Shown here in pieces: positions 52,711 to 59,227 of a DNA stretch of 64,000 nucleotides. Under the pieces are notes generated by a model. The model worked only from the letters and a program-made list of their open reading frames with translations. It had not been told where the DNA came from and made no database searches. The DNA comes from Patescibacteria group bacterium. Its GTDB lineage: Bacteria; Patescibacteriota; Microgenomatia; UBA1400; PJMF01. The stretch lies in the NCBI GenBank assembly GCA_039934415.1, contig JBDTME010000006.1, positions 17,206 to 81,205 on the forward strand. The letters run 5' to 3'. The translations under genes were made by a program, and so were the position numbers. Every line of letters begins with the position of its first letter. The stretch's first letter is position 1.

Positions 52711-53654
52711 AAGTTACCGTGGTGATACCACTTTTAAATGAAGTACTCAGTCTTGATGCTTTACTACATGCATTGATGAAGCAGACTCTTTCTCCAACTG
52801 AAGTGATTTTAGTTGATGGTGGGTCAAAAGATGGATCGATAGAAAAAATCCAAGAATGGCAACAAAAAAAATTATCGTTCAATTTGGTGCTTCTTGAGAA
52901 ACTGGGTGCGAATCGATCGGTCGCTCGCAATTTTGGAATCAAGGAAGCAAGAACCGAAGTGATTGCTCTGACCGATGCGGGATGCAAACCAAAAGCCGAC
53001 TGGCTGGAAAAGTTGACGACACCATTTATTGACGAAGAACGGACTGAAGTTGTGGCAGGTTTCTATGACCCAGCTCCGCAAAACTGGTGGGAGGATGTGC
53101 TTGCTGATTATACGTGTACTCGTGACTGGAATTTCCAACCTAATACTTTTCTACCATCGTCTCGTTCATTAGCTATCACTAAGACAATTTGGCATAAAGT
53201 CGGCGGATACCCAGAGCATCTCAATACGTGTGAGGATCTCATTTTTGCGGAAAAATTAAAAAACAAGTCAAAACACTGGCAAGTGGTTAAAGAGGCCCAA
53301 GTGATCTGGAACCAACCTCACAATTTATCTGAACTCAGTCAAAAAATTTTCGGATACGCCACAGGGGATTTACAGGCCAAGTATGAACGACACGTCAACA
53401 AGATTTATTCAGCGATGTGGAGAATTATTGTTCTGATTTGTGTGGCAGTTCCAGCAGCGTTTATTGGTCAGCCGATAATTCGAGTATTTGGGTTATCCTT
53501 TTTTGCCCTCTATATCGTAGGTAGCCTGGGCAAACATCCTAGAATGCTCAAGTATCCCTTGGCGATTTTCGCCATCCCAGTCATTCAGCTCACCGTTGAT
53601 GCCTCGCTCGTTCAAGCTCTGATCTATCACAAGCTATCCTCTCAATATAAGTAG
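52707..53654 (+). CDS. Glycosyltransferase family 2 with C-terminal TM helices
   Basis: VVIPLLNE ... VILVDGGSKDGS ... DAG(C) DxD-like motifs of GT2. Confidence 0.8.
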   Translation: MKVTVVIPLLNEVLSLDALLHALMKQTLSPTEVILVDGGSKDGSIEKIQEWQQKKLSFNLVLLEKLGANRSVARNFGIKEARTEVIALTDAGCKPKADWLEKLTTPFIDEERTEVVAGFYDPAPQNWWEDVLADYTCTRDWNFQPNTFLPSSRSLAITKTIWHKVGGYPEHLNTCEDLIFAEKLKNKSKHWQVVKEAQVIWNQPHNLSELSQKIFGYATGDLQAKYERHVNKIYSAMWRIIVLICVAVPAAFIGQPIIRVFGLSFFALYIVGSLGKHPRMLKYPLAIFAIPVIQLTVDASLVQALIYHKLSSQYK

Positions 53655-55360
53655 CTTTTTTTCTGGTAAAATAGGTCACAATCTGGAGAGGTCGCATAGT
53701 GGCCTAGTGCATCGGTCTTGAAAACCGACATCCGAAAGGATCGAGGGTTCGAATCCCTCCCTCTCCGCCATCGTGTACGAATGGCTAAAAGAGCTTCCGA
53801 TTGTTCGGGTGAATAGGGCTTTTCTGTGAGTTCTAACGAAAGGTATTTCTGTTCTAGAGCAGGATAGGCTTTTTTGATCTCTGCGAAGTGTTCTGTGAGC
53901 TCTATATAGAGCTTTCCTGCCTTGATTTTAGGACCATATCCCAATGCCATAAGGATTTCTTTCTTCAGTTCTAACCCTCCATGAAGGAATGCTTCGTGAG
54001 CGTAGGTGGCGAAGTGAAAAGTTCTCTCTGTAAGCTCGAGCCACTCAACGGCTCGCTGCTCAGTTCTTCTGAGTTTCTCCTTTAGTTCGGTAATTTTGGT
54101 TTGAAGTTCGTTCCTTTGTTTCACAAACATGTCATCGTCAATGAGTTCTCTAAACCTCATCTTGGTTAAGTTGTCGAGCTCTGTTTGTGTAGTGACTAAC
54201 GTTTTATGTTGCATGTCATAAATTTTGCTGCGGTCTTCAATTTCTCGGTCGTTGTTTTCATTGAGGACTTCTAGTGCCCAATCTTTAAACTCGGGGAGGA
54301 TGGTAATAGCATCCAGTTCTGTTTCGATTTGCTCTTCGAGTTTTTCGAGTGGGACCACTTTCCTTTGAGTACATTTTATGGTCGTTTTCTTCCTGGTACA
54401 GTGATAATAGGTGTACTCTTTAATCTCACCAGTTTTCTTAATGAATTTTTTCTTCGTTTCGGCGGTATATAGACAGCCACATTCTCCACACCGAACAAAA
54501 CCAGTAAAGGCAAACTCATGCTTCTTGGGGCGTGGTTTACCTTTTCTTCCCATCAATACTTGCACTCGGTCAAACTCTTCCAAGGTGATCATGGGATCAT
54601 GTTTGCCTTCATAGTGTGTGCCTTTATGATTAAGAATGCCTGCATAGAAGACACTATTGAAAATCTTGTAGATCCCGCTTCGAGAAAGCGGTTTTCCTCC
54701 TAAGCGTTTCGTTTTTCTGGTGAGGTAACCCCATTCTTCATTGGCGACTTTCAAAATTTGTGGTGGAGTATACGCTCCAGTCAGCATTAAGTCCCACATC
54801 TTACTAATCAGGTTAAATCGATCTGTATCTTTGGCAATGGTGTTTTCAGTTCTGTCATTGAGATATCCAGCTGGAGCCATGTTGGGGAGCCAGCCTTTTT
54901 GTAACTTTGTCTCTATACCACGTTTCACATTCTTGCTTAGGTCCAGAATGTATTGATTGGAACTAGCGGCTTCAACACTGAAGATAATAACGTTATCACC
55001 TGGTAAATATTCACGATCATAGGTTTGAATTGACTTGAGCACACTTTGTTGGAGTAACCAACTGACACGACCACTGTCAATCGGGTTCCTGGAAAGGCGG
55101 TTAATTTGCCAACAAAGAAGCCCATCAGCCTCACCATTCTCTAATTTATCCATAACCTCTTCAAAGATTGGGCGATTCCCAGGTTTTTTGGCGGATTTTG
55201 CCTCGGTAAAGATTTTTACGATGTGAAGATTATTTTCTTTGGCTAACTGGTTGAGCTTGTTAATTTGGCTCTCAATGGACTGAACTTGCCTGTCTTCGCT
55301 GTCGGAAGACTTGCGTGCGTAGAGAAAGTAGCGGATGTGTTGTCTGTCTTTTGTGATCAT
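53642..55360 (-). CDS. Large serine recombinase (resolvase/invertase catalytic domain + recombinase domain + zinc ribbon)
   Basis: N-terminal YARKSSDSEDRQVQSIESQ catalytic Ser context, a central recombinase domain, a CGECGC...C Zn-ribbon and a coiled coil. The last ~40 codons of the ORF are antisense to tRNA-Ser, so the true C-terminus is uncertain. Confidence 0.85.
   Translation of the reverse strand: MITKDRQHIRYFLYARKSSDSEDRQVQSIESQINKLNQLAKENNLHIVKIFTEAKSAKKPGNRPIFEEVMDKLENGEADGLLCWQINRLSRNPIDSGRVSWLLQQSVLKSIQTYDREYLPGDNVIIFSVEAASSNQYILDLSKNVKRGIETKLQKGWLPNMAPAGYLNDRTENTIAKDTDRFNLISKMWDLMLTGAYTPPQILKVANEEWGYLTRKTKRLGGKPLSRSGIYKIFNSVFYAGILNHKGTHYEGKHDPMITLEEFDRVQVLMGRKGKPRPKKHEFAFTGFVRCGECGCLYTAETKKKFIKKTGEIKEYTYYHCTRKKTTIKCTQRKVVPLEKLEEQIETELDAITILPEFKDWALEVLNENNDREIEDRSKIYDMQHKTLVTTQTELDNLTKMRFRELIDDDMFVKQRNELQTKITELKEKLRRTEQRAVEWLELTERTFHFATYAHEAFLHGGLELKKEILMALGYGPKIKAGKLYIELTEHFAEIKKAYPALEQKYLSLELTEKPYSPEQSEALLAIRTRWRRGRDSNPRSFRMSVFKTDALGHYATSPDCDLFYQKKSYLY
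53685..53770 (+). tRNA. tRNA-Ser (anticodon TGA)
   Basis: Cloverleaf folded manually: acceptor GGAGAGG/CCTCTCC, 3-bp D-stem, anticodon stem TCGGT/ACCGA with loop CTTGAAA, long variable arm, T-arm GAGGG-TTCGAAT-CCCTC, discriminator G and CCA. Confidence 0.9.
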
Positions 55361-55408
55361 GTTCTGTTTTGTATATGATGACTAAAGTACATCATTAGTA
55401 TATACCAC

Positions 55409-56089
55409 TTAGCTTGCTTTATCCAAGAACTCTTTGAATTGAACTAAGCTCTTTTCCATACGCAGATACTTTTTAGTAAATTTGTGGTTGTGTTTTACTC
55501 TTTTCACCTCGTGCAAATGTCGTTCATATCTATGCATCAAAGCTGTTGCATGAAACCAAGAATACATTGAGTGACGATCATTTCTCTTTCGACAGGTATA
55601 GGTCAGTTCAAAGCAATGCCGACAACCAAAAAAGTTTCTGACTTTGTACAATACTCCCACTCTCTTGCCACAAATTAGTCCGTTTTTAGGAACCGGACAG
55701 AGGAACCAATATCGCCACCCACCATAGGTACACGGTGTCCTGGTTAAATAAATTTTCAGTGGATATTTTTGACCATCACTCAAGTCATAGAGTAGGTAGA
55801 GGTAGGGGTGATAGTCCTCAACATGGCTCGAGATACTGAAGGTTTGTGTTTCGTCATCGAGTGAGTTGTACCACTCCATAGCGCCTTGTTTGTCCGCACA
55901 CAGGTAGTGATATTTCCTCAGCCAATAGATGTCGAATTTAAGCAGAAAGTTTGATTCTAGTTTCATATGGGTAGCCTGGGACTGTGTCGAAATCATTAAG
56001 GATGTCATCTCATTCTGTCCTGGTTTTGTCCAACTTTTGTATAACCTCTTTTTCAGTCTCGGGTAGCTGATGGGGTTTGTTTTTCCCAT
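55409..56089 (-). CDS. Hypothetical Cys-rich (zinc-ribbon) protein, island-encoded
   Basis: CPVPKNGLICGKRVG...GCRHC metal-binding-like motifs. No family recognised. Confidence 0.3.
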   Translation of the reverse strand: MGKTNPISYPRLKKRLYKSWTKPGQNEMTSLMISTQSQATHMKLESNFLLKFDIYWLRKYHYLCADKQGAMEWYNSLDDETQTFSISSHVEDYHPYLYLLYDLSDGQKYPLKIYLTRTPCTYGGWRYWFLCPVPKNGLICGKRVGVLYKVRNFFGCRHCFELTYTCRKRNDRHSMYSWFHATALMHRYERHLHEVKRVKHNHKFTKKYLRMEKSLVQFKEFLDKAS

Positions 56090-56397
56090 TGTTCTTTTCG
56101 CCCCAGCCTGCCATAGGTCATCTCGATATCTGGGTCAGGAAAGGGTGGAGTTGGTAATGAATCTCCATAAATCAAGGCTTGCCTATTCTGGGCGTGCAGT
56201 TGCCGGAAAGTACTCATGTCACCACTCTTGAGAGCGGTCTTCATTTTCAAGAACCGCTTGCAACATGCTGAATTTCTAACTCTGGCATAATAGGCTCGCC
56301 ATACTTGTCTTCTTCTGTAAAACTCACCGCTGTCGATGAGCTCTGATGGAACCCTCATTTTTATTTGCTCGTCTGGTTTTTCTTTCTTAAATGCCAT
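56053..56397 (-). CDS. Hypothetical basic protein (114 aa)
   Basis: ORF overlapping its neighbours by a few codons in an operon-like arrangement. Confidence 0.3.
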   Translation of the reverse strand: MAFKKEKPDEQIKMRVPSELIDSGEFYRRRQVWRAYYARVRNSACCKRFLKMKTALKSGDMSTFRQLHAQNRQALIYGDSLPTPPFPDPDIEMTYGRLGRKEQWEKQTPSATRD

Positions 56398-57154
56398 ACT
56401 TTTTACCTCCTTTACTCAATGTATTGGCCACATTCATCAGATCCCAACCGTTCTCATTCCAGAACTTATCTTTGTCCATTGCATTCAAACAATGATTAAT
56501 TTGTTCATCGCTGAAACCAGCTTTATAAAGTTTATGCAAAGCACTTATTTGTTTAGGAAAATTCACAAACTTTTTACCAAACTCAGCTTCGACTGAGTGA
56601 ATATTTTCAATGCACTTTTGATGACCTTGAAGGTTTGGACAAATTGTTTTCCGAGAAACTTTAGGTTTTTCGCTAGGACCACTTTCAAGTAGGCTGGTAA
56701 TATTTTCTTCTTTCCCTTGTTCTTCTTTAGTGTCCCTCAGCTGGGACGATGTTTGTCCCCGATTTGAAACGATCTCTTTGTTTTCTGAAGATTGTCCCCC
56801 GTTTGGGACGATCTTTTTGTGACGGTAAAATTCGGCATTCTGCTCCCATAAATCAACAATGGCATACGTCGTTCGAGGTTTGGTTTTGGCGGGAATTGTC
56901 CCTGAAGTTTTAATCCAACCACGATTAATCAAGGACTCTAAAAGACGGTAGACAGTGTTTTTACTGATACCACATTTCTTTCCCAGCTCTCTAGCCGAAT
57001 AGTAAACTCTGCCACGTTCACCAGCGATGCGTTTTAGCGTTAGATAAAAACCTCTTTCTTCTAGAGTTGAATGATTCACAATGTAATTAGGGACAATGGA
57101 GAAGTAGGCTCTATCGCTTGACTCATCTTTGATATTAAATTCTGTTTGTTTCAT
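56387..57154 (-). CDS. Winged-helix/HTH DNA-binding protein, putative replication initiator or organizer, with internal iteron-like repeats
   Basis: N-terminal wHTH (ARELGKKCGISKNTVYRLLESLINRGWI) resembles phage/plasmid Rep or DnaD-like initiators. The central coding region holds three copies of GTCCC-N5/6-GGGAC/GAAAC. Confidence 0.45.
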   Translation of the reverse strand: MKQTEFNIKDESSDRAYFSIVPNYIVNHSTLEERGFYLTLKRIAGERGRVYYSARELGKKCGISKNTVYRLLESLINRGWIKTSGTIPAKTKPRTTYAIVDLWEQNAEFYRHKKIVPNGGQSSENKEIVSNRGQTSSQLRDTKEEQGKEENITSLLESGPSEKPKVSRKTICPNLQGHQKCIENIHSVEAEFGKKFVNFPKQISALHKLYKAGFSDEQINHCLNAMDKDKFWNENGWDLMNVANTLSKGGKKYGI

Positions 57155-57345
57155 AACAACTCGAGTTGTTTCTTCCGCTCCATGACTTGTTGGTACTGAA
57201 CTTTCGTCATTGGTTTGTAAATAATCTGCATGAGTCGAACTAGGGAGAGTCCTTTTTCATACGCGTCTTCATAACTAATCTCTTTGCCGAATCGAGCTTT
57301 ATAGAGCATTTGGTATTTTTCAACTTGAGCCTCTGTAATAAACAT
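57151..57345 (-). CDS. Hypothetical small protein (64 aa)
   Basis: ORF whose stop overlaps the start of the downstream gene. Confidence 0.3.
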   Translation of the reverse strand: MFITEAQVEKYQMLYKARFGKEISYEDAYEKGLSLVRLMQIIYKPMTKVQYQQVMERKKQLELL

Positions 57346-57347
57346 AG

Positions 57348-57644
57348 CTAGACCGCCGTGCTATAAATTCTATTTTTAAGCATCTTCGTGTTTTCAAAGA
57401 AAGAACGCGCTTCAACTATCAAACGGCCAGCAAAATACTCCTGGACCGAATATTCAAGTTCTGGTGTTTTAAGAAAAATGAAACCAATTTTGCGAACATT
57501 GTCGCGATTCAATGAAAGAAGCTCGTAGTGAAGAGTAACGAGTGCTGAAGAGAGTCCAATGTCGTAACTGAGGAAATGGTGGTCACCCTGAAGGTTCCCT
57601 AATATTGTGTTCATAGTATGTTCTGCTAGCTCAAGTCTAGGCAA
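57348..57644 (-). CDS. Hypothetical protein (98 aa)
   Basis: ORF; first structural gene downstream of the XRE regulator. Confidence 0.3.
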   Translation of the reverse strand: MPRLELAEHTMNTILGNLQGDHHFLSYDIGLSSALVTLHYELLSLNRDNVRKIGFIFLKTPELEYSVQEYFAGRLIVEARSFFENTKMLKNRIYSTAV

Positions 57645-57953
57645 AACATACCGACAGATCTAGAAAGTTTGTGGTTGTTTAGGTTTATTTGTGAAGGAGA
57701 GTACCAGCTATTGTTTGGTTTGAGTTGTTTTTGTTACACTCCGATTAATGAAAAGATCATTTTCTGATAAAGAGAAACTCAATAATGTTGTCTAAAAAAT
57801 TAATCGATGAGTACAAACAAATTATTAAGGAAGATTATGGACTTGAGTTGTCAGACGAGGATGCACATGACTGTGCTACCAATCTCGTCGATTACTTCGA
57901 GTTACTAATGAAAATCGATCACCAAACGAAAGTGAAGAAAGAAGAGTAAAGGT

Positions 57954-58181
57954 CTAAAAAGGGAGCAGCTCGCAAGAATCTACTTTTAATGCCTTGGAGA
58001 TTTTGTAAAGTGTTCTGACCGTGGGGTTTCGCTCACCTCGTTCAATAAGTCCAATGTAGGTTCGATCCATCGAAACCATGACAGCAAGTGCTTCTTGTGT
58101 GACACCTTTACTCTTCCTAGTTTGTTGAAGCTTTTGGCCGAATTTCTCTAGTATGTGTTTGTGAGTGATAGGTTTTCCCAT
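57954..58181 (-). CDS. XRE-family helix-turn-helix transcriptional regulator (Cro/CI-type)
   Basis: HTH_XRE signature QEALAVMVSMDRTYIGLIERGERNPTVRTLYKISKAL. Confidence 0.85.
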   Translation of the reverse strand: MGKPITHKHILEKFGQKLQQTRKSKGVTQEALAVMVSMDRTYIGLIERGERNPTVRTLYKISKALKVDSCELLPF

Positions 58182-58330
58182 TCCTCATACTTTAGAGACT
58201 CCCTGTCTTCTTTTCCTCTGACTCCTTGTCATCATTTATGTTATACTTGGCCTGGTAGTAGGAGCAGTTTCGATTTGACTTTCCAGGCTAAAGGAAGGTA
58301 ACATCTCGAAACTTACGGGAGGAAAAGCCT

Positions 58331-59227
58331 ATGACAAGAAAAACGTTAAAAAAACTACCGTTGTTGGTACTTTTTCTAGCAATGAGTCTTTTAGCTGGTG
58401 GGTTTGTGCTGAGATCTAAAGCACAAACACAAGTAATACAGATCTGGGATCAGAATTTAGAACAAATAAAAGCCCTGACAGAAGCTTCTAACAACGATCC
58501 GAAATACCGTGAACACAATTCACAAGCCAGCAAGGATTTATCAGATGAGCTCTGTTCATTCACTACGCGTCCTGCTGAAGAGCGAGAAAAAGCAGTGGGT
58601 GCTATTCGTGATTTCTTGGAAATGCCAACAGCTGAAATAAAGTATGAATGTAACGATGCCTTTTATGACTTAGAAAGTGATCGCTTTATTCAAGCAAAGA
58701 GTGAGACTTATTCCCTAGACAAGACTTACTTCATTGTGAATTTTGTAACAAACCATATCATTCAAGTTGAAGAGACTCCTGGAACCTGGGGATATAAAAC
58801 AGATGGGACTAGGTGGTTTAGTGAACAAAAAACCTATGACTATTCAAGGAACCTCTCTCAGAAAGACGCTGAACAACTTGCGAGAAACTTTATTGCTAGA
58901 CGCCAAATGGCTTTGGGGAGCATCGATCTGAGTAAACTAAAGCTAGAGACTGGCAAAAAAGATGTTGGTAATGGCCAAATAAATTATTTCTTCATTTGGA
59001 AGGGAGAGTCTAAAACAGTTCATCTCGACCCTCCTGCTGAAACTTGTAGTCAAGATTTGGATAAGAAGGCAGAAGGTTTGTACCTTAATGGCAATGGAGT
59101 ACCCTGTATAAAGCGGTACGAGTCTACAGAAACGCCAACGCTGAGCATTGCCTTCACCAACAGTGGTCAGCTGATTAACTTCTCCAATGAACTAGAGGGA
59201 CAAATTGGTAGGGCAAGGATGAGATGA
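58331..59227 (+). CDS. Secreted or membrane-anchored hypothetical protein (298 aa)
   Basis: Signal-peptide-like N-terminus MTRKTLKKLPLLVLFLAMSLLAGG. No motif. Divergent from the XRE gene. Confidence 0.35.
   Translation: MTRKTLKKLPLLVLFLAMSLLAGGFVLRSKAQTQVIQIWDQNLEQIKALTEASNNDPKYREHNSQASKDLSDELCSFTTRPAEEREKAVGAIRDFLEMPTAEIKYECNDAFYDLESDRFIQAKSETYSLDKTYFIVNFVTNHIIQVEETPGTWGYKTDGTRWFSEQKTYDYSRNLSQKDAEQLARNFIARRQMALGSIDLSKLKLETGKKDVGNGQINYFFIWKGESKTVHLDPPAETCSQDLDKKAEGLYLNGNGVPCIKRYESTETPTLSIAFTNSGQLINFSNELEGQIGRARMR

Follow-up and report, generated by a model that had tools for sequence, protein, structure and literature searches.

The window analyzed here, a stretch of 64,000 nucleotides (nt) from contig JBDTME010000006.1 of a Patescibacteria group bacterium, contains an open reading frame (ORF) on the minus strand (56387..57154), which codes for a Rep-like protein of 255 amino acids, and about 340 nt into this gene lie three spaced copies of a short inverted repeat. 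The locus raises the question whether these copies are a by-product of the encoded peptide, a regulatory device or, as stated in the original prediction, the iterons of a replication origin located inside the gene of its own initiator. The repeats are constrained as nucleotides, they are located in the segment coding for the linker of the protein and co-vary with its DNA-binding domain, and the protein itself resembles phage initiators. By analogy to O of phage lambda and gp38 of phage SPP1, they are probably the iterons of an origin within the initiator gene.

The 20-nt pattern TGTCCC-N6-GRRACGAT was found in three exact matches starting at 56731 (TGTCCCTCAGCTGGGACGAT), 56754 (TGTCCCCGATTTGAAACGAT) and 56793 (TGTCCCCCGTTTGGGACGAT), all of them inside 83 bp and inside the ORF, with start-to-start spacings of 23 and 39 nt. 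The consensus of the 23-nt unit is TTGTCCC-N6-GRRACGATCT. The palindrome GTCCC-N4-8-GGGAC matches twice in the 64-kb window, both times in the array, whereas 0.01 matches are expected from shuffled sequences, and two or more matches were reached in none of 100 shuffles. The three copies which had been predicted inside this ORF are thus present at their predicted places and exceed what is expected by chance. Read in coding direction, iteron 1 (56792..56814, TTGTCCCCCGTTTGGGACGATCT) is enclosed by a 28-bp hyphenated dyad (56788-56815, AAGATTGTCCC-N6-GGGACGATCTT), iteron 2 (56753..56775, TTGTCCCCGATTTGAAACGATCT) has one degenerate arm, and iteron 3 (56730..56752, GTGTCCCTCAGCTGGGACGATGT) follows head to tail against iteron 2 with a spacing of 23 nt and in another reading frame. 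The array was not detected by Tandem Repeats Finder, because its units are too few and too diverged. Two further occurrences of TTGTCCC in the same gene, at 56896 and 57090, were considered as extra half-sites and rejected, as their codons vary freely in the homologs; they are chance by-products of the peptides IVPN and GTI.

On the coding strand, copy 1 reads ATC GTC CCA AAC GGG GGA CAA (IVPNGGQ) and copy 2 ATC GTT TCA AAT CGG GGA CAA (IVSNRGQ). Copy 3 is shifted by one base, since 23 nt is not a multiple of three, and is translated from ACA TCG TCC CAG CTG AGG GAC ACT as TSSQLRDT. A repeat at the peptide level can therefore not account for copy 3, and of the peptide repeat described earlier for this gene only two copies stand (IVPNGGQS and IVSNRGQT), but not the third. 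For a comparison, 50 related loci (numbered with the prefix L) were gathered from genome, viral and metagenome collections, and the same segment was extracted from each. The synonymous-codon entropy at conserved residues, determined over the N-terminal 160 codons of 13 alignable loci, is 0.42 bits in the repeats versus 1.17 bits elsewhere (Mann-Whitney p = 3e-6). The codons fixed in the repeats are otherwise uncommon and not the favoured ones: GGA is used at G120 and G133 in 24 of 25 cases, versus 18% of the glycine codons elsewhere, TCT at S122 in 13 of 13 (20% elsewhere), TCG at S136 in 11 of 11 (12% elsewhere) and AAG at K114 in 13 of 13 (33% elsewhere). The peptide IVPN at residues 20-23, which belongs to the folded domain, serves as an internal control, and its codons are free, with GTA, GTC, GTT or GTG for valine and CCT, CCA, CCG or CCC for proline.

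Among ten clade-A loci, the third-position identity ranges from 0.40 to 0.54 in the segment of the winged helix-turn-helix (wHTH) domain, where the amino-acid identity is 0.70-0.98, and from 0.67 to 0.72 in the repeats, where the amino-acid identity is 0.60-0.64; directly after the repeats, in a polypurine tract, it reaches 0.86. Homologs keep the repeats better as DNA than as protein (third-position identity of about 0.70 in the repeats versus about 0.45 in the wHTH segment), which answers in the affirmative the comparison suggested together with the original prediction. This shows that the repeats are constrained as nucleotides, independent of the encoded peptide.

The symmetry of the repeats was scored in an alignment of 14 sequences in which the arms were written as pairs. 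The dyad arms are complementary in 83% of the cells versus 32-45% in slid registers, and the arms of the iteron 1 dyad pair in 87% of the cells of these 14 homologs. Changes on both arms occur in seven cells, a number equalled in one of 500 shuffles, and four arm pairs show a change on both sides. Furthermore, the three copies of one locus change in concert: the arm reads GGGAC in the window and in the loci closest to it, CGGA in L003, and TGGA in both L015 and L027. The arms of iteron 3 shift jointly across clades from GTCCC/GGGAC to GTCCG/CGGAC and GTCCA/TGGA. The amino acid at this place of copy 3 varies from R to T to V while the DNA arm matches the other copies, so that the DNA arm is kept despite the other frame. 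The half-site GGACAA of iteron 2 is invariant among the clade A homologs, the invariant core of the repeats is RGGACA, and an outer AAGAT...ATCT frame around the first repeat was read by eye in nine clades. Judged from these sequences, each repeat appears to be a hyphenated dyad and a candidate site for a protein dimer. In L027 (2505-2600), a TGA codon interrupts the reading frame in the repeat region, whereas neither the AAGAAGA tract nor the three TCCA-N-TGGA repeats are disrupted; this locus is either a rep pseudogene with a preserved DNA array or a split gene.

In distant homologs, down to 35% protein identity, unrelated repeats are located at the same position of the gene, and each clade has its own array of about three to four units. 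The repeats are AACCGCAC-NN-GTGCGGTT and AAACCGCAA in clade B, AAGATACGTAAACCACAGAACCA in L032-L036 and L043, AAGATAAGTYCTGAAAG in L045, L048 and L049, AAGGTGTCA-N6-TGAC in four copies in L047, and GAGGTGGTG, also in four copies, in the IMG/VR contig L008. Several clades, e.g., L049 and L036, have direct repeats with little dyad symmetry. Among 44 non-redundant linkers, a 9-mer in at least three copies (one mismatch allowed) was found in 18, versus two and none of the 44 in two control windows taken from the same genes. In most clades the last two copies are 23 nt apart, independent of their sequence: the spacings are 39 and 23 nt in the window and L009, 40 and 23 in L032 and L033 as well as in L045 and L048, 34 and 23 in L034 and L043, 33 and 23 in L036, 33, 22 and 23 in L049, and 24, 25 and 23 in L041. 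The recognition helix and the wing of the wHTH domain differ between clades with different iteron types, being SKNTVYRLL and IPAKTKPR in clade A and SDDTVYRLL and IPTGHKPR in clade B, with KKSKVYQLI as the recognition helix in clade C. This is the pattern which a co-evolution of initiator and iterons would predict, and it is confounded by shared ancestry.

Downstream of the repeats in coding direction, the coding strand carries a polypurine tract (56704..56729) with two AAAGAAGAA motifs 15 nt apart, at 56720-56728 and 56705-56713, in the arrangement AAAGAAGAA-N6-AAAGAAGAA. A doubled RARGAAGAW, 15-16 nt apart, was found after the array in most loci of a scan of 48, independent of the type of iteron; several loci have one copy and L008 has none. 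In this tract glutamate is encoded by GAA in 37 of 37 cases versus 55% elsewhere. The tract is a candidate unwinding or loading element, or else a candidate junction for the exchange of modules.

The Rep-like protein itself seems to consist of three parts. A model was built with AlphaFold2 on a 32-sequence alignment, and it predicts a wHTH domain at residues 12-112 (coding region 56819..57121 on the minus strand) with the topology H-H-H-H-H-E-E-H and a predicted local distance difference test score (pLDDT) of 82-89 over residues 31-100. This domain is the presumed reader of the iterons. The pLDDT falls below 50 for residues 114-170, a linker predicted to be disordered (56645..56815), and the repeats together with the purine tract encode exactly this stretch. 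A C-terminal domain of five helices follows at residues 178-247 (56414..56623, pLDDT about 85), which is exchangeable between homologs: residues 1-150 are conserved in the protein alignment, whereas after DTKEEPGKE the sequence continues in one of at least three unrelated C-terminal types, every one of which is found with each of the three N-terminal clades. The C-terminal domain is presumed to be a module recruiting a partner or a helicase.

In Pfam the protein matches HTH families only (HTH_36 5e-9), and DnaD_N stays at 23.0 bits versus a cutoff of 27 (E = 9.4e-5). Phage_rep_O is not among the 21 Pfam hits at E <= 0.1, and neither Rep_3 nor another plasmid Rep family was hit in Pfam. The PHROG matches to replication families span 1e-9 to 1e-6 and include replication initiation O-like (1.6e-9), DnaD-like helicase loader (4.9e-9) and a family named replication initiation protein, next to a second O-like family at 3.7e-5. 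Foldseek against the PDB returned generic wHTH regulators (E about 0.02), including the RepA N-terminal domains 4pql, 4pt7 and 5kbj, as well as DnaD-N (2v79, E = 0.02), and a PDB sequence search gave nothing beyond generic wHTH matches. In the viral contig L008 (2605-4217), a rep homolog is followed by a DnaB_C helicase (1e-24). The PHROG initiator matches and this neighbouring helicase bear out the assignment as Rep-like, which had been made from the ORF alone. Read in this way, Rep would work like O, whereas membership in the lambda O family is not supported by Pfam. In L030 (5980-11644) the neighbours of the N-terminal and repeat module include a large terminase (GpA_ATPase 2e-18) as well as a serine recombinase; the same module is thus present in other kinds of elements (L030, L008). 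No homologs were found in a cultured-phage collection or among the PLSDB plasmids.

An origin inside the initiator gene is a textbook arrangement of lambdoid and several Gram-positive phages, and in lambdoid O genes the N-terminal and repeat module recombines with different C-terminal types. In lambda, the origin lies in the middle of O and comprises four iterons, each an inverted repeat of 18-19 bp bound by O, next to a 39-bp region of high AT content (PMC7466680, PMC6022878). The window resembles this system in the position of the array, which lies mid-gene in the link between an N-terminal DNA-binding and a C-terminal partner-binding half, in the number of copies (three to four across the clades), in iterons which vary between relatives while the adjacent tract is kept, in a C-terminal half which is swapped as a module, and in the O-like PHROG match. 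It differs in the missing Phage_rep_O match, in having three iterons instead of four, in a tract that is polypurine (about 64% AT in a gene of 61% AT) instead of a high-AT region, in the lack of a recognisable P-like loader, and in its carrier, a 5.6-kb serine-recombinase element of Patescibacteria instead of a full phage.

In SPP1, oriL is located inside gene 38, its direct repeats are bound by the origin-binding protein gp38, and the origins include an AT-rich DNA unwinding element (PMC6316719). The common features are repeats inside the gene of their own initiator, the DnaD-like, wHTH-type relatives of Rep, and the order of a rep homolog and a DnaB-family helicase in L008, which recalls gp38 with the loader gp39 and the DnaB-type helicase gp40. 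Unlike in SPP1, the AT-rich unwinding element is absent, the window element has no loader or helicase genes, and no sequence match was detected in the cultured-phage collection. Iteron plasmids with RepA/Rep_3 initiators (pPS10, R6K, pSK41/pTZ2162) share the wHTH initiator, a phased array of repeats of about 20 bp and the weak structural matches to RepA N-terminal domains. Plasmid iterons lie outside rep, beside DnaA boxes and an AT-rich region, whereas the array of the window lies inside the gene, the element is integrative, and neither a Pfam hit to Rep_3 or another plasmid Rep nor a match in PLSDB was obtained.

Several observations weigh against an origin. No AT-rich or low-stability DNA was found beside the repeats by composition and nearest-neighbour stability: the flanks have 62% AT upstream in coding orientation and 64% downstream versus 61% for the whole gene, and the ten 40-bp windows of lowest stability within 55300-58400 include neither of them. 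The AT-rich region which the original prediction had placed just upstream is not there, so that the classical unwinding element is missing or replaced. Neither a helicase nor a primase or loader was recognised in the window element with Pfam, PHROG and a further family search, and terminal repeats marking a circular replicating form were found in none of 28 whole-contig loci. The likeness to characterised initiators is modest, with a best PHROG match of 1e-9, no Phage_rep_O or Rep_3, a DnaD_N match below the cutoff and generic Foldseek matches. The left arms of the dyads are often degenerate, and iteron 2 and several copies in homologs are degenerate in one arm. Moreover, the homologs share ancestry, and the statistics on conservation and covariation are not independent samples.

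An unlikely alternative, although the best of those considered, is that the repeats are operator-like sites for Rep or another protein of the element, which autoregulate or block the operon of rep, orf114, orf226 and the integrase and do not form an origin. The dyads, the joint variation of repeats and wHTH domain and the constraint at synonymous positions fit such sites, the missing AT-rich unwinding element is in line with them, and the wHTH domain also matches the transcription-factor families IclR, TrmB, MarR and PadR. Operators normally overlap promoters, but the sites of the window lie deep inside the gene and show no promoter-like site. The best family matches are to replication initiators, one homolog is paired with a DnaB helicase, and origins of the lambda and SPP1 type are marked by just such an array, conserved within the linker of a modular protein (PMC7466680, PMC6316719). 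The roles of operator and origin are not mutually exclusive.

It is improbable that the palindromes act as RNA, either as hairpins of the rep mRNA or as a structured antisense RNA which controls rep like the copy-control RNAs of plasmids. The plus (antisense) strand folds into three hairpins (z = -3.4), iteron 1 is followed on this strand by TTTTT in the manner of a terminator, and many differences between the arms are C-to-T changes, which preserve G-U pairing on the sense strand. However, the fold of the sense strand is not significant (z = -1.6), no Rfam family was matched except for a chance hit (E = 0.88), no sigma-70-like promoter is placed for an antisense RNA, and the terminator scan does not call iteron 1. 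An RNA structure also needs neither a common hairpin sequence nor concerted change nor a 23-nt register, in several clades the repeats are direct and of low dyad symmetry (L049, L036), and about 17% of the arm cells are unpaired.

Slightly less probable again is a recombination junction, in which the nucleotide conservation, above all that of the polypurine tract, would mark the joint between the N- and C-terminal modules, and the repeats would be a functionless, slippage-prone linker. The boundary between the conserved N-terminal and the swapped C-terminal part lies right after the DTKEEPGKE/AAAGAAGAA tract, and each C-terminal type is combined with all three N-terminal clades. Recent recombination would, however, not preserve the doubled AAGAAGAA and the 23-nt register at 35% protein identity, and it leaves unexplained both the dyad changes on both arms and the fixation of codons in the repeats upstream of the junction. 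Very improbable, and contradicted by the data, is that the array only reflects at the DNA level a tandem peptide repeat (IVxNxGQxS) of the linker, the outcome named beforehand as the refutation of an origin: two of the three copies are in frame (IVPNGGQS/IVSNRGQT), and in L047 and L008, the only loci with an in-frame 21-nt spacing, all copies of the array are, but in the window copy 3 is read in another frame, most clades have copies in different frames, the repeats combine a lower amino-acid identity with a higher synonymous-site identity than the folded domain, the linker is predicted to be disordered, and in about 50 homologous loci the repeats are either kept as DNA motifs or replaced by other arrays at this place.

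For an origin inside rep, the following course can be assumed. The element of about 5.6 kb would be excised from a tRNA-Ser gene by its serine recombinase, and the rep operon, of which an XRE protein is assumed to be the repressor, would then be transcribed. The N-terminal winged-helix domain of Rep would bind the three hyphenated-dyad sites, probably as dimers, with the two promoter-distal sites kept in a fixed 23-bp register, and the Rep-DNA complex would distort the conserved polypurine/polypyrimidine tract beside them. A replicative helicase would be recruited by the exchangeable C-terminal domain, perhaps with the help of the orf114 product, for replication of the theta type. Binding, unwinding, helicase recruitment and autonomous replication are inferred steps.

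A further and more tentative idea is that a hitherto undescribed family of minimal integrative replicons is represented in the window by its Rep-ori cassette. The family, seemingly confined to Patescibacteria and related uncultured lineages, might insert into tRNA genes by a serine instead of a tyrosine recombinase, and its origin might dispense with an AT-rich unwinding element and use instead the conserved pair AAAGAAGAA-N6-AAAGAAGAA, set at a constant 23-bp register relative to the clade-specific iterons. This idea is possible rather than likely. If it is true, the family would follow a different logic of origin opening or loading and would offer a replicon of swappable specificity ready for vectors of the candidate phyla radiation (CPR); should the cassette turn out to be no more than a regulatory array, the interest of the finding would be limited. 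The novelty lies in the family and in where it occurs: an initiator of an uncultured lineage is carried by a 5.6-kb tRNA-targeting serine-recombinase element in Patescibacteria, its 23-bp register is conserved, and a polypurine tract takes the position in which AT-rich DNA would be expected. No prior description of the element in Patescibacteria was found in the literature, in a search that was not exhaustive. To our knowledge, neither native plasmid vectors nor characterised replicons have been described for Patescibacteria (CPR). An origin inside the gene of its own initiator would be a compact, self-contained replicon of about 0.8-1.2 kb, and a Rep-ori cassette with natural specificity variants and a tRNA-targeting serine integrase would be a practical start for genetic tools. 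The family can also be regarded as a natural experiment on the co-evolution of initiator and iterons, with one scaffold, one 23-bp register and many iteron sequences.

The gene rep is part of a conserved module of about 5.6 kb (53642-59227 in the window), which recurs in more than 20 loci according to a tblastn search of the window genes against all loci. On the plus strand its order is serine recombinase, orf226, orf114, rep, orf64, DUF5659, a variable region, XRE and orf298. The outer flanks differ between loci, which shows that the module is mobile. No capsid or conjugation genes were recognised in the window element. The exact Rep protein is annotated from a Patescibacteria metagenome-assembled genome (MAG), and other carriers are Nomurabacteria and Gottesmanbacteria MAGs. 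The carriers L002, L003, L004 and L007 are labelled as MAGs of uncultured Pseudomonadales or uncultured Gammaproteobacteria; either these labels cannot be relied on or the hosts of the element are more diverse.

The integrase gene (53642..55360, minus strand) codes for a large serine recombinase and is located at the junction of element and chromosome. The Resolvase catalytic domain (8e-19), the Recombinase domain (1e-5) and the zinc ribbon (Zn_ribbon_recom 3.5e-11) are all present, and the PHROG family integrase is matched at 3e-64. A tRNA-Ser(tga) gene was identified with ARAGORN at the same junction (53685..53770, plus strand), and all of it lies antisense to the 3′ end of the recombinase ORF (53642-53770). 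The recombinase abuts a tRNA gene in the window and in 12 other loci with differing outer flanks. This gene is tRNA-Ser in the window and a further eight loci, tRNA-Gln in L003, tRNA-Asp in L022 and tRNA-Asn in L038 (junctions at 9288-9378 in L001, 10062-10135 in L003, 5773-5863 in L005, 9991-10067 in L022 and 3666-3738 in L038). It is typically tyrosine integrases that target tRNA genes. An unusual feature is that the C-terminus of a serine recombinase is encoded across the reconstituted tRNA gene, and this C-terminus may change on excision. No att-type direct repeats were found between the tRNA gene and the far end of the element, as is expected for a serine recombinase, and the right boundary of the element is therefore only approximate.

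Directly downstream of rep and overlapping it by 11 nt, orf114 (56053..56397, minus strand) encodes a candidate partner of Rep. It is conserved in more than 20 loci with a Rep C-terminus of type 1, whereas with type 2 it is replaced by unrelated genes, which suggests an interacting pair. The family searches (Pfam, PHROG) gave no match for orf114, and the gene which takes its place in L022 (type 2) was rejected as a relative, since no relation is detectable. Between orf114 and the recombinase, the cysteine-rich orf226 (55409..56089, minus strand) is conserved. Its product contains CxxxxxxxxxxC...CxxC motifs, which are zinc-ribbon-like, and has no match in Pfam, PHROG or NCBIfam; its position would be in line with a recombination directionality factor or an accessory protein of replication.

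The genes orf64 and DUF5659 (57151..57644, minus strand) are located directly upstream of rep in the same operon and are conserved. An XRE-family HTH protein (57954..58181, minus strand; HTH_3 2.8e-15, PHROG transcriptional repressor 2e-12) is also conserved in the module and, judged from these matches, is likely the repressor of the element. At the far, right-hand end, orf298 (58331..59227, plus strand) encodes a protein with an N-terminus resembling a signal peptide or a transmembrane segment and without a family match. It adjoins the XRE gene in ten loci with differing outer flanks at 25-62% identity (2673-3563 in L001), probably represents both cargo and the right-hand portion of the element, and possibly codes for a surface or exclusion protein.

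Finally, orf64 (57151-57345, minus strand) and orf54 (57785-57949, plus strand) are paralogs (BLASTP E = 8e-7), which flank the DUF5659 gene and a probable divergent promoter region on opposite strands. A relative of orf54 precedes rep in L038 and L039.

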